From Patescibacteria group bacterium (lineage in GTDB: Bacteria > Patescibacteriota > Minisyncoccia > Phycocordibacterales > UBA5272): 54,442 nt of DNA. The position numbers and the translations under genes are program-made. This document shows, piece after piece, positions 20,916 to 23,420 of this stretch. The stretch is from contig JAUPVR010000003.1 of the NCBI GenBank assembly GCA_030916895.1, positions 1-54,442 of the forward strand, given 5' to 3'. A model generated the notes under the pieces. That model was given only the letters and a program-made list of their open reading frames with translations. It did not search any database and was not told the DNA's origin. Each line of letters opens with the position of its first letter. Within the stretch, counting starts at the first letter, position 1.

Positions 20916-23141
20916 ATGCAAAAAACATTAAAATATATTGTGTACGCGTGTCTTGTGTTCGTGCCGTTTTTGGCATACTACGTCGCAGATGGCGGAACAC
21001 TTGATCTCCTTAACTGGGGAACCTCGGGAATGTTTTTCCCATTCATTTCTGGCAAGAATCTCGTTTTCCGAATGGTTGTAGAAATTGCGGTTGCAACGTG
21101 GGTGCTCCTCATGCTTTTTGAACCAAAGTATCGGCCAAAGAAATCTCCAATACTTCTTGCGTATGGAATTTTCATTATTATACTTTTCTTTGCGGATATG
21201 TTCGGTGAGAATCCTTGGAGAAGTTTTTGGTCAAGTTTCGAACGAATGGAAGGTTTCATAGGTCACATCCACCTCTTTGCATATTTTGTTGTTCTTGGTT
21301 CCATGCTCTCAACTGCGGGTGAGTGGAGGACAATGTTTAAGGTTTTCATTGCATCAAACCTTCTTGTTTTGTCACAAGGATTTTTCCAGTTATTTGGAGT
21401 GCGGGATTATTTCTATGCAAAACTTCTTCCAGATGGTCTTGTAAACTGGTTTTCAACAAACTTCCCAGTCCATCAGAGTACTAATCGACTTGATTCAACT
21501 ATCGGTAACTCTGCCTACTATGCTGTTTATTGTCTCTTCTTTGCTTTTATTGCAGCAGTCCTTTGGACGCACGCTAAAGGAAAGGGAGAGAGGTGGTTTT
21601 ATGGCATCGTTGTTGCGCTTAACATTGTATCGCTTTTCTATTCTGGTACTCGTGGTACGATGATAGGCCTTATTGTTGGTTCTGTGGTCACTCTTGGAGT
21701 TCTTGCGTGGAAGGAGCACGGCAAAGCGCGCAAAATGCTCGGTATTGCTCTTGCTGTGCTTGCAATTGCGCTCGCAGGACTTTTTTCAATGAAGAATACA
21801 ACATTGATTAAAAGTTCACCGACACTTTCTCGTCTTGCAAGTATTTCTCCAACAGATATTACGACAATGAGTCGTATCAATATTTGGAAGATAAGTTTTG
21901 AGGCGTGGAAGGAAAAACCAATACTTGGATACGGACAGGAAAATTTTTCAAACATTTTTGCTAAGAAATTCGTTGCGGATAAGATGTGGAATCTCGAACC
22001 ATGGTACGACCGTTCACACAATGTATTCTTTGACTGGTTGATTGCTGGTGGAATTTTGGGACTCCTCTCATACCTCTCACTATTCCTCATTGCCTTCTAC
22101 CTTATGTGGCTCAAGAAGGGTGTTAGTGAAGAGGAATTTCCTTTACCGGAGAGGGGGATACTAACCGGTCTTCTCGTTGGCTACTTCATTCACAATATCT
22201 TTGTGTTTGACAACCTGACAAGCTACATCATGTTTGCATTTGTGCTTGCGTACATTGCTTACAAGACATCTGAAGGTCATAGGTATGGAGGTACTAAGGT
22301 GGTGAATGAAGAAATGGGTACGTGGCTTTGGGCGCCAATCGTTGCGGTACTGTTTTTCGCTATCTTTTACTCTGTGAGTTACAAACCACTTCTCGTAAAT
22401 AAGCTTCTCATTAAGGGAATTGATGTTAATCGTCTTGCTGCGACAATGCCGTTTAGTCAGATTCTCACACTACAGAAAGAGTCATTCCGTTCAGCGATTG
22501 ATCTAAATGTTGTTGGATCTGAAGAAGCGCGTGAACAATTCATCCAAACGGTTGCGCGAATGTCACAAGTTCAGGTACCACCAAATGTGCCTGAAGAAGA
22601 AAAAGTTGCAATTAGTAAGGCAATGAATGAACTTATTCAAGAAGTAAGGAAAGAAATGGAACAAAGCTACCCTTACTACAAGGGCGAAGTACGTGCACTT
22701 TCCATTTTCGGTATGTTCTACAACATTATTGGTGACTACGCTTCAGCGGAGAAGATTCTCGGGGAAGCTGTTGCTTTGGCGCCAAATAAACAGATTACCG
22801 TTTTTGATCTTATCCGTGCACACCTAGCTCAGAAAGAATTCGGTGAGGCGTACGATATTTCAAAGAGAATTTTCCTTGCCGCACCAGATTTCAGCAATGC
22901 AATGAAACTCTACGTTGTGTGCGCTATCTACGCTAACAAACTTGAAGACGCAAGAGTAACACTTGCTTCTGTTGAAAAGACCATCCCAGTTGATGGGGAT
23001 ATTCTAAATACGCTTGTTGATGCAAAGCAGTACGATGTTGCAATCGCCCTTCTTCTTCAGTTGAAAAAAGATCAACCAGAACTTGCCGGGCAGGTGGACG
23101 AGTACATTAAGACGGTTATTGACAAACGAGCTGGCAAGTAG
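20916..23141 (+). CDS. O-antigen ligase family membrane protein with C-terminal TPR-like helices
   Basis: Multiple TM helices with RLDSTIGNS, SGTRG, PILGYGQENF and the Wzy_C motif DRSHNVFFDWL, followed by a helical-repeat tail. Confidence 0.88.
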   Translation: MQKTLKYIVYACLVFVPFLAYYVADGGTLDLLNWGTSGMFFPFISGKNLVFRMVVEIAVATWVLLMLFEPKYRPKKSPILLAYGIFIIILFFADMFGENPWRSFWSSFERMEGFIGHIHLFAYFVVLGSMLSTAGEWRTMFKVFIASNLLVLSQGFFQLFGVRDYFYAKLLPDGLVNWFSTNFPVHQSTNRLDSTIGNSAYYAVYCLFFAFIAAVLWTHAKGKGERWFYGIVVALNIVSLFYSGTRGTMIGLIVGSVVTLGVLAWKEHGKARKMLGIALAVLAIALAGLFSMKNTTLIKSSPTLSRLASISPTDITTMSRINIWKISFEAWKEKPILGYGQENFSNIFAKKFVADKMWNLEPWYDRSHNVFFDWLIAGGILGLLSYLSLFLIAFYLMWLKKGVSEEEFPLPERGILTGLLVGYFIHNIFVFDNLTSYIMFAFVLAYIAYKTSEGHRYGGTKVVNEEMGTWLWAPIVAVLFFAIFYSVSYKPLLVNKLLIKGIDVNRLAATMPFSQILTLQKESFRSAIDLNVVGSEEAREQFIQTVARMSQVQVPPNVPEEEKVAISKAMNELIQEVRKEMEQSYPYYKGEVRALSIFGMFYNIIGDYASAEKILGEAVALAPNKQITVFDLIRAHLAQKEFGEAYDISKRIFLAAPDFSNAMKLYVVCAIYANKLEDARVTLASVEKTIPVDGDILNTLVDAKQYDVAIALLLQLKKDQPELAGQVDEYIKTVIDKRAGK

Positions 23142-23147
23142 GATACT
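23119..23147 (+). promoter_or_regulatory. Putative sigma70 promoter for the intergenic RNA
   Basis: TTGACA (23119-23124), a 17-nt spacer, then GATACT (23142-23147). Confidence 0.4.
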
Positions 23148-23152
23148 ACGTG

Positions 23153-23420
23153 TGTGAGTGCCTCATGGCTTACTTAAAACAAGTATAAGAGTCTGCGCAA
23201 ATGGTCATCCAAAAGATGGCCATTTACGTTTCTCTGGAAGCTTTGTAAACACTTTGATATACTTATAATCGTGGTCCTTGTCGCAATCTGGCTTCTTGCT
23301 TTGTTGCGGTGAGCGACCGCACTCACATAAGGCACTTATTTTGGAGTAAGCCACGCTCACCACAAGAGAGCGTGAACCAAAAAAAGAAACACCCGCATTT
23401 TGCGGGTGTTTCTTTTTTTA
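23153..23420 (+). ncRNA. Candidate structured non-coding RNA (family unassigned; 6S-like size)
   Basis: No credible ORF. Long-range complementarity 23166-23184/23334-23353 and 23153-23161/23319-23327, plus local hairpins. Upstream TTGACA-N17-GATACT and a downstream terminator. Confidence 0.45.
23379..23419. terminator. Bidirectional intrinsic terminator
   Basis: Perfect 19-bp inverted repeat AAAAAAAGAAACACCCGCA-TTT-TGCGGGTGTTTCTTTTTTT between convergent units. Confidence 0.85.

Follow-up and report, generated by a model that had tools for sequence, protein, structure and literature searches.

The closest described systems to the one reported here are antisense RNAs and their target hairpins, such as CopA-CopT of plasmid R1, RNAI-RNAII of ColE1 and Sok-hok, in which a small RNA meets the apical loop of a structured partner and the pairing then spreads into the stem. 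Sponge and decoy pairs, 6S RNA and RNAs that are made of two pieces offer further points of comparison. Here we compare these systems with an intergenic gap (positions 23142-23417) in contig JAUPVR010000003.1 of assembly GCA_030916895.1, from a Patescibacteria group bacterium whose genome is 660 kb in size and 93% complete. The whole stretch of 54,442 nucleotides (nt) that was analyzed is called the window. The gap sits between two convergent genes, and in an initial annotation it was seen as one structured non-coding RNA of ~275 nt. It is indeed structured and free of a conserved open reading frame (ORF), but it is not one molecule. Instead, it holds two tandem small RNA genes on the plus strand, RNA-A and RNA-B, each of which is expected to be transcribed on its own. 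We consider it probable that the two RNAs make up an undescribed module, specific to the Parcubacteria (Paceibacteria) class, which would act as a pairing switch of the antisense type.

Two small RNA genes in the gap

The two genes are composed of the following features:

23119-23147, plus strand: RNA-A promoter, with -35 TTGACA (23119-23124), a 17-nt spacer and -10 GATACT (23142-23147)
~23152-23235, plus strand: RNA-A (s1), ~80 nt; model R2 matches 23152-23231 with 65.8 bits
23154-23160, plus strand: RNA-A 5' heptamer GUGAGUG, the RNA-A strand of helix I
23154-23173, plus strand: RNA-A hairpin P1
23174-23192, plus strand: RNA-A linker
23193-23235, plus strand: RNA-A terminator hairpin and U-tract
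23235-23263, plus strand: RNA-B promoter, with a weak -35 TGGAAG (23235-23240) and an extended -10 TGATATACT (23255-23263)
~23271-23419, plus strand: RNA-B (s2), ~150 nt; models R1 and R3 match 23276-23386 with 102.7 and 91.3 bits
23271-23294, plus strand: RNA-B 5' leader, lineage-specific
23295-23315 and 23354-23374, plus strand: 5' and 3' strands of the RNA-B rod
23316-23353, plus strand: RNA-B apical domain, with CACUCAC (23320-23326), a variable loop (23327-23340), UUGGAG (23341-23346) and UAAGCCA (23347-23353)
23379-23419, both strands: bidirectional intrinsic terminator of 19 base pairs (bp), flanked by an A-run and a U-run and common to RNA-B (plus) and tsaD (minus)

In a DNA search of 60 relatives, only ~60-90 nt of the gap (23304-23365) were strongly conserved, at 83-95% identity in 30 of the 36 genomes of the genus. 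The spacer between RNA-A and RNA-B (23236-23270) is not conserved, and inside the genus the distance between the two ranges from 91 to 1227 nt. In relatives, both units keep their promoters and terminators in the same positions. Because arrangements exist in which the two genes are convergent, on different contigs or 241 kb apart, they are separate genes that are able to act in trans.

The fold of the gap could also be read in another way, as a single RNA of ~275 nt that starts at the first promoter, ends at the last terminator and forms its long-range helices within one molecule, whether 6S-like or pseudoknotted. The minimum free energy (MFE) fold of 23145-23420 on the plus strand does use long-range helices and is more stable than dinucleotide shuffles (z = -8.0, or -4.7 without the final terminator); the fold of the minus strand is weaker (z = -6.7, and -3.4 without the final terminator). 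The imperfect U-tract of the RNA-A terminator and the tandem layout on the same strand in 60 of 81 genomes would fit a single RNA as well. Nevertheless, we judge it very unlikely, as it is at odds with an internal promoter and an internal terminator that are conserved in position, with the variable distance and unconserved spacer between the units, with their convergent or distant placement in other families, and with a 6S model that finds nothing. The initial annotation would have had the element judged by its conservation in relatives and by its folding against dinucleotide-shuffled controls. Both properties are found, the former in the identity of the core within the genus and in the covariation of the rod described below.

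The RNA-A promoter had been recognized from its motif, TTGACA-N17-GATACT. The motif is present and is conserved in relatives, but alone it is not significant, with one match in the sequence against 2.0+/-1.3 in shuffles. Thus, the promoter call depends on conservation rather than on the motif match itself. A TAnACT -10 element lies 6-8 nt 5' of GUGAG in ~40 homologous loci, and the class-wide form of this promoter is TTGACw plus an extended TGCTATAnT -10. Downstream of it, RNA-A in relatives consists of GUGAGYG, a hairpin, an A-rich linker with AUGCCUGCRYA at its 3' end and then the terminator, the stem base of which shows a compensatory change from GCGCA/UACGU to GCAUA/UAUGU in the alignment. 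The previously noted hairpin at 23199-23225 is this terminator. With its own promoter, a 5' heptamer and linker, and a Rho-independent terminator, RNA-A has the layout of a trans-encoded base-pairing small RNA.

The extended -10 element TGATATACT in the middle of the gap, which had also been noticed, turns out to be the conserved promoter of RNA-B. In the genus this promoter has the form TTGAAn-N17-T(G)TACACT, with a constant 7-nt spacing to GTGG. A perfect TATAAT at 23264-23269, absent from relatives, lies immediately 3' of the conserved TATACT -10 in the window, and it is possible that RNA-B has two overlapping -10 elements here. An inner helix GGAAGC/GCTTCT that had been proposed for the single RNA does not survive, since its 5' arm falls in the -35 region, upstream of the predicted RNA-B start. 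At the other end of the gap, the 19-bp terminator is present as described (23381-23419), and the convergent terminator arrangement of RNA-B and tsaD recurs in the genus.

The rod of RNA-B, of ~20 bp, is obtained by RNAalifold and by a covariance-model alignment of 39 diverse sequences. In this alignment 93.5% of the cells are paired, and 22 of the 28 pairs have changes on both sides; for the rod, compensatory changes are counted in 20 pairs. The covariation score was reached in 0 of 500 shuffles, and partners slid by 1-3 columns were only ~42% paired. The G-U pairs and the scores on the reverse strand (30 vs 112 bits) set the plus strand as that of RNA-B. Two hairpins of the initial annotation, at 23305-23321 and 23352-23374, compete with this rod and are outside the consensus fold. 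In the window genome, the RNA-B 5' end carries an insertion, GUGGUCCUUGUCGCAAUCUGGCUU (23271-23294), which pairs with the 5' strand of the rod in the single-sequence MFE fold. This alternative fold is unavailable to relatives.

Above the rod, the apical domain has the consensus G-CRCUCAYAUA, a variable loop of ~12-16 nt and UUGGAG, and the elements GCRCUCAYAUA...UUGGAG are near-invariant across the class. In the consensus fold of the window RNA-B, a stem ACUC(A)CA/UG-GAGU closes a variable loop of 14 nt. Its outer pair covaries (A-U 23, G-C 6, G-U 4, other 6). We also considered an intramolecular H-type pseudoknot between the 5' part of the loop and the strand that follows GGAG; it was rejected, as cognate and non-cognate combinations gave 2.89 and 2.87 bp, respectively (p = 0.36). 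In the genus, the post-GGAG strand pairs with RNA-A. A role of GGAG as a Shine-Dalgarno sequence was rejected too, because the 16S ribosomal RNA of this genome has no CCUCC tail and no conserved AUG is found downstream. The 3' tail of that RNA is GGAUUAAUUCAAUG, compared with the bacterial consensus GGAUCACCUCCUUU (contig C30, about 7249-7262), and therefore the canonical CCUCC anti-Shine-Dalgarno is absent in this organism.

Neither RNA appears to encode a protein. The ORFs in the gap are only 36-68 amino acids (aa) long and are disrupted by indels in relatives, and no conserved ORF was found in RNA-A or RNA-B, in which close relatives differ by 1- and 2-nt indels within the conserved core. 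A small coding ORF, a frame of 19 codons on the minus strand, was rejected because indels disrupt it in relatives.

Co-evolved pairing between RNA-A and RNA-B

RNA-A has segments complementary to nearly the whole apical domain of RNA-B. The helices between the two RNAs, both read on the plus strand, are:

Helix I: RNA-A 23154-23160 (GUGAGUG) with RNA-B 23320-23326 (CACUCAC)
Helix II: RNA-A linker, about 23175-23192, with RNA-B about 23329-23344 (the loop up to UUGG)
Helix III (in the genus): RNA-A hairpin 3' strand GGCUUAC, 23166-23172, with RNA-B GUAAGCC, 23346-23352

The co-evolution of these helices was tested by permutation, with statistics that ignore kinship. At the compensatory positions of the interface, 97-100% are still paired. 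Among 61 RNA-A/RNA-B pairs, the first variable position of helix I is G-C in 13, G-U in 7, A-U in 39 and mismatched in 2, and the second is C-G in 58 and U-A in 3. Within RNA-B, that same position finds its partner in GGAG-N in only 70% of the sequences, and helix I is therefore better kept than the apical stem of RNA-B itself. For helix II, cognate partners in 20 diverse pairs gave -15.0 kcal/mol compared with -9.5 kcal/mol for non-cognate ones, and none of 20000 permutations was as good. The same was found for 19 independent pairs from named genomes (-14.7 vs -11.9 kcal/mol; 0 of 20000 permutations). The compensations that can be seen include AGACAU:AUGUCU, AGUCAU:AUGACU, AGAUAU:AUAUCU and AAACAUUUUUGG:CCAAAAAUGUUU. 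Helix III also co-evolves within the genus (cognate -7.75 vs non-cognate -6.36 kcal/mol; 0 of 20000 permutations). In the window, the local duplex of helix I is predicted at -18.3 kcal/mol, and that of helices II and III together at -22.9 kcal/mol.

These helices put the long-range pairings of the initial annotation in a new light. Its closing helix, 23166-23184/23334-23353, is found in the MFE fold, but it is not a helix of one molecule and corresponds to the intermolecular helices II and III. Likewise, the register of TGTGAGTGC with GCACTCACA (23153-23161/23319-23327) is a complementarity used in the MFE fold, but it is intermolecular and is helix I. The idea of a pseudoknotted or switching RNA holds in so far as the complex has crossed helices and must open the apical stem, and is not supported in so far as the pseudoknot is placed inside one molecule. 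It is the remaining idea, a pair of short RNAs that base-pair with each other, that agrees with the separated, convergent and different-contig genes seen elsewhere and with the co-evolution of the long-range helices.

The complete helix II together with helix I is incompatible with the apical stem of RNA-B, and therefore binding of RNA-A must open this stem. We suggest that the linker of RNA-A would contact the loop of RNA-B first and that the duplex would then spread. The 5' heptamer of RNA-A would capture CACUCAC, displacing RNA-B's own UGGAGU. As a result, the apical stem would be opened and a bimolecular duplex of 20-25 bp with a crossed order of helices would be formed. The output would probably be mutual titration, cleavage by RNase III, or remodelling of whatever binds the invariant hairpin. 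Where RNA-B is the leader of murB or of other genes, RNA-A would control those genes, and in the genus of the window RNA-B would act, if at all, as a free RNA. With respect to proteins that could take part, RNase III and RNase Y are encoded in this genome, while Hfq and CsrA were not found in its six-frame ORFs with approximate E. coli queries.

Several points weigh against this proposal. The U-tract of the RNA-A terminator is interrupted, and some read-through into RNA-B is possible in the window. The apical stem is invariant, hence itself without proof from covariation, and just 70% of sequences keep its outer pair. The window's own helix II, at -9.8 kcal/mol, is the weakest of the 20 pairs examined, and cofolding of the whole molecules gives only -10.7 kcal/mol, compared with -5.1+/-2.8 kcal/mol for shuffled RNA-A. 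Helices I and II occur in the same 5'-to-3' order on both RNAs, and a simple nested duplex cannot hold both. The complex must therefore be crossed, like a bimolecular pseudoknot; the position of helix I at the very 5' end of RNA-A makes this sterically feasible. Finally, no downstream gene or other target is evident in the genome of the window, where a search for other targets or RNA-B-like sites gave k-mer matches at chance level and one look-alike inside an ORF.

Distribution, genomic context and possible roles

The RNA-B surveys, including that of the phylum, used the stricter filters of Infernal, so that the counts are lower bounds. With a model trained on the genus, RNA-B was found as a single copy in at least 63 of the 401 sampled genomes of the class. 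With a model trained on diverse sequences it was found, again as a single copy, in at least 135 of the 401, representing 100 of 282 genera and about 40 families. In a phylum sample of 236 genomes all matches fell inside the class, and RNA-B was not found in the ~224 genomes outside it. RNA-A was found in 91 of the 401 genomes, and 81 of these carry RNA-B as well (Fisher odds ratio 38, p about 1e-36). The usual layout, seen in 60 of the 81, places RNA-A directly upstream of RNA-B on the same strand, and the median distance between model boundaries is then 35 nt. In ~8 genomes the two genes are adjacent and convergent, in 6 they lie on different contigs, and in one they are separated by 241 kb.

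Public records that bear the RNA-B core are titled Candidatus Nomurabacteria, Kaiserbacteria, Taylorbacteria, Zambryskibacteria, Paceibacterota and similar. High-scoring RNA-B of the Paceibacteria type also occurs in records of metagenome-assembled genomes titled 'uncultured Candidatus Saccharibacteria' (third-party, TPA, assemblies), and in one titled 'Crocinitomicaceae' (loci L072, L080, L084, L099, L100, L113, L114, L120, L121, L123, L128, L138, L142 and L095). This suggests mislabelled taxonomy or contaminant contigs behind these titles.

The genes on either side of the gap in the window are:

20916-23141, plus strand: Wzy_C (O-antigen-ligase-like) and TPR protein of 741 aa (Pfam PF04932, 4e-23; TPR_19)
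23418-24599, minus strand: tsaD, convergent with RNA-B (Pfam PF00814, 1e-74; stop codon at 23418-23420)

The final codons of the Wzy_C/TPR gene overlap the RNA-A promoter, and in several families RNA-A is preceded by the same gene with the same C-terminal motif. As listed, the tsaD ORF has 393 aa, and its PF00814 match is in two stretches, of which the best-scoring starts only at residue 112. The true start may lie downstream, or the protein may have an N-terminal extension. Neighbouring genes vary among families, and we found no conserved protein gene beside the RNAs.

RNA-B lacks a terminator outside the genus of the window and one other family (f27). In five loci it is followed on the same strand by murB, whose start codon lies inside or beside the 3' strand of the rod, and in about ten loci by a membrane ORF of ~52 aa (MRY[A/T]WV...); other genes follow it elsewhere. 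Judged from these arrangements, RNA-B appears to be the 5' leader of murB or other genes in other lineages, and a free-standing, terminated RNA in the genus of the window. The ~52-aa ORF is hydrophobic (MRY[A/T]WV...FRS/KSA), begins 10-40 nt downstream of RNA-B and is followed by a gene of ~440 aa (loci L039, L042, L044, L045, L048, L051, L052, L055, L062 and L063); no homologue of it was found in the genome of the window. A perfect DnaA-box-like nonamer, TTATCCACA (usually as GTTATCCACA), is found repeatedly downstream of RNA-B, in the interval before secA, in several families (loci L040, L043, L046, L047, L057 and L061). In the genome of the window this nonamer is located on contig C29, about 330 nt upstream of secA, and is also upstream of a small lysine-rich ORF.

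The same distribution could be explained if the two RNAs were always assembled as a bipartite RNA particle, in which helices I and II/III, being crossed, would build a compact, pseudoknot-like core next to the 20-bp rod. Such a particle would have a housekeeping role, as a ribonucleoprotein (RNP) subunit or as a ligand-binding or catalytic RNA, instead of being a regulator with its target. The invariant CACUCACAUA and UUGGAG would then serve not merely for pairing but as a site of protein binding, ligand binding or catalysis. The two RNAs are single-copy and co-occur across the class, both promoters are strong and look constitutive, and the pair is retained even without a gene downstream of RNA-B, as in the genus of the window. 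The variable interface co-evolves freely while CACUCACAUA and UUGGAG stay invariant, as in the interfaces of two-piece RNAs. We nevertheless regard a permanent particle as unlikely. RNA-B is fused ahead of different genes in many lineages, which a regulatory leader fits better, and in 54 genomes with RNA-B no RNA-A was detected, although the model for RNA-A is weak. In addition, no conserved neighbouring protein gene and no resemblance to a ribozyme or riboswitch family was found. Should such a particle exist, it would represent a housekeeping function peculiar to the Paceibacteria, a class without the signal recognition particle (SRP); the 16S anti-Shine-Dalgarno is also lacking in the genome of the window.

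Since RNA-B of the window has no gene on the same strand 3' of it, and neither murB nor secA of this genome has RNA-B upstream, one may ask if the pair is a decaying relic in this genus, with RNA-B a former leader of the murB type and RNA-A a regulator left without purpose. The weak helix II of the window and its RNA-A linker and RNA-B 5' leader, which are atypical for the genus, point in the same direction. There is only a slight chance of this, in our view. Identity of the RNA-B core is still 83-95% in 30 species-level genomes of the genus, the rod covaries and helix III co-evolves within the genus, the promoters and terminators are intact, and a second family (f27) also has a terminated RNA-B.

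The pairing switch that we favour would matter for the biology of this class. The Paceibacteria (Parcubacteria) are abundant and uncultured, and they have genomes of 0.5-1 Mb with very few recognisable regulators. A single-copy RNA pair that has been kept across dozens of families, with pairing that has co-evolved at two or three sites, is among very few candidate regulatory or RNP devices in them. Here the module occurs as a free RNA and in other lineages as the leader of cell-wall or secretion genes, so that the re-wiring of a trans-acting RNA and its target can be followed in a natural series. Moreover, the pairing of RNA-A and RNA-B is directly testable in vitro with synthetic RNAs, and no culture is needed.

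Comparison with known RNAs

No family of Rfam 15 matches the two RNAs at its gathering score. At E<=10, the region 23000-23550 gives only noise from leader and small RNA families driven by the terminators, and a search of 20 homologous loci against Rfam gives nothing at E<=0.01. We found no description of RNA-A or RNA-B in the literature searched. Neither RNA is in Rfam 15, and they appear to be a new class-wide, dedicated RNA pair.

A divergent form of a universal RNA (the 4.5S RNA of SRP, 6S RNA, transfer-messenger RNA (tmRNA) or RNase P RNA) or a type I toxin-antitoxin system has to be weighed here, because the Rfam models of SRP RNA and 6S RNA find nothing in these genomes, so that their slots look empty, and because RNA-B is rod-shaped like 4.5S RNA. 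Each candidate was rejected. 6S RNA is a rod of ~185 nt with a central bubble. The initial annotation had suggested a 6S-like RNA, and this suggestion is not supported: the 6S model (RF00013) has no match at gathering score in the window, nor any match in 23000-23550 when the threshold is relaxed to E<=10, and the conserved unit is a ~110-nt rod (~20 bp) with an apical hairpin rather than a rod of ~180-185 nt with a central bubble. In 13 related genomes the 6S model reaches its cut-off in none and gives one match of 23 bits elsewhere, but it is insensitive, as it succeeds in only 5 of 14 control genomes.

SRP RNA (RF00169) was found at E<=1 in 0 of 21 related genomes, compared with 13 of 14 controls. 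None of the 401 class genomes has the Ffh M domain (PF02978), and the SRP GTPase domain (PF00448) is missing from all 13 that were searched for it. With E. coli Ffh as the query, phmmer finds nothing in the genome of the window, while the SecY control was found. SRP RNA is excluded because Ffh and FtsY are absent from the class; SecY, SecA and SmpB are present. Loss of SRP in the Parcubacteria has already been published (Nelson and Stegen 2015, PMC4508563).

A tmRNA, in one piece or two, is ruled out by a normal tmRNA elsewhere in the genome (contig C35, 24078-24468, minus strand; Rfam model, 106.8 bits). ARAGORN reports no tmRNA in this genome and misses the full-length one that is found by the Rfam model. 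The genome's copy of RNase P RNA is also elsewhere (contig C29, 24817-25099). As for a type I toxin-antitoxin system, neither RNA has a conserved ORF, and there are 1-2-nt indels in the core among close relatives. Taken as a whole, this explanation is already largely refuted, and we assign it only a minimal probability.

How then does the proposed module compare with the systems introduced at the beginning? It would work like an antisense RNA and its target hairpin and seems to belong to no described family. Systems of the CopA-CopT type resemble it in their crossed or junction complexes and in a long duplex that RNase III can cleave. CopT, a leader just 5' of a start codon, is also like RNA-B of other lineages. 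The regulators of the CopA type, however, are cis-antisense and fully complementary to their targets, whereas RNA-A has a gene of its own, which lies either upstream, in the same orientation, or elsewhere, and pairs through two or three short blocks. Furthermore, the RNA-A/RNA-B module is chromosomal and class-wide, and in the window RNA-B is terminated and has no gene to control.

Sponge and decoy pairs, such as GcvB-SroC, the ChiX-chb decoy and 3'ETS-leuZ, are alike in that two non-coding RNAs mainly pair with each other and one could titrate the other. Known sponges differ in that they are usually by-products of mRNAs or tRNA precursors that act on multi-target, Hfq-dependent small RNAs. 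For RNA-A and RNA-B, no Hfq was detected with the approximate queries, no further targets can be seen, and the co-evolution of the interface is that of a dedicated pair. 6S RNA resembles the module in being an abundant-looking, rod-shaped non-coding RNA with a promoter, a terminator and a conserved single-stranded region paired by a second RNA, to which the product RNA (pRNA) of 6S loosely corresponds, but the pairing partner of RNA-B is encoded by a gene. Two-piece RNAs, including two-piece tmRNA, the U4/U6 small nuclear RNAs and crRNA-tracrRNA, are likewise separate transcripts with co-evolving intermolecular helices and invariant functional segments. RNA-A and RNA-B are unrelated to them in sequence and structure, have no known associated protein gene, and would join through helices whose order is crossed rather than nested.

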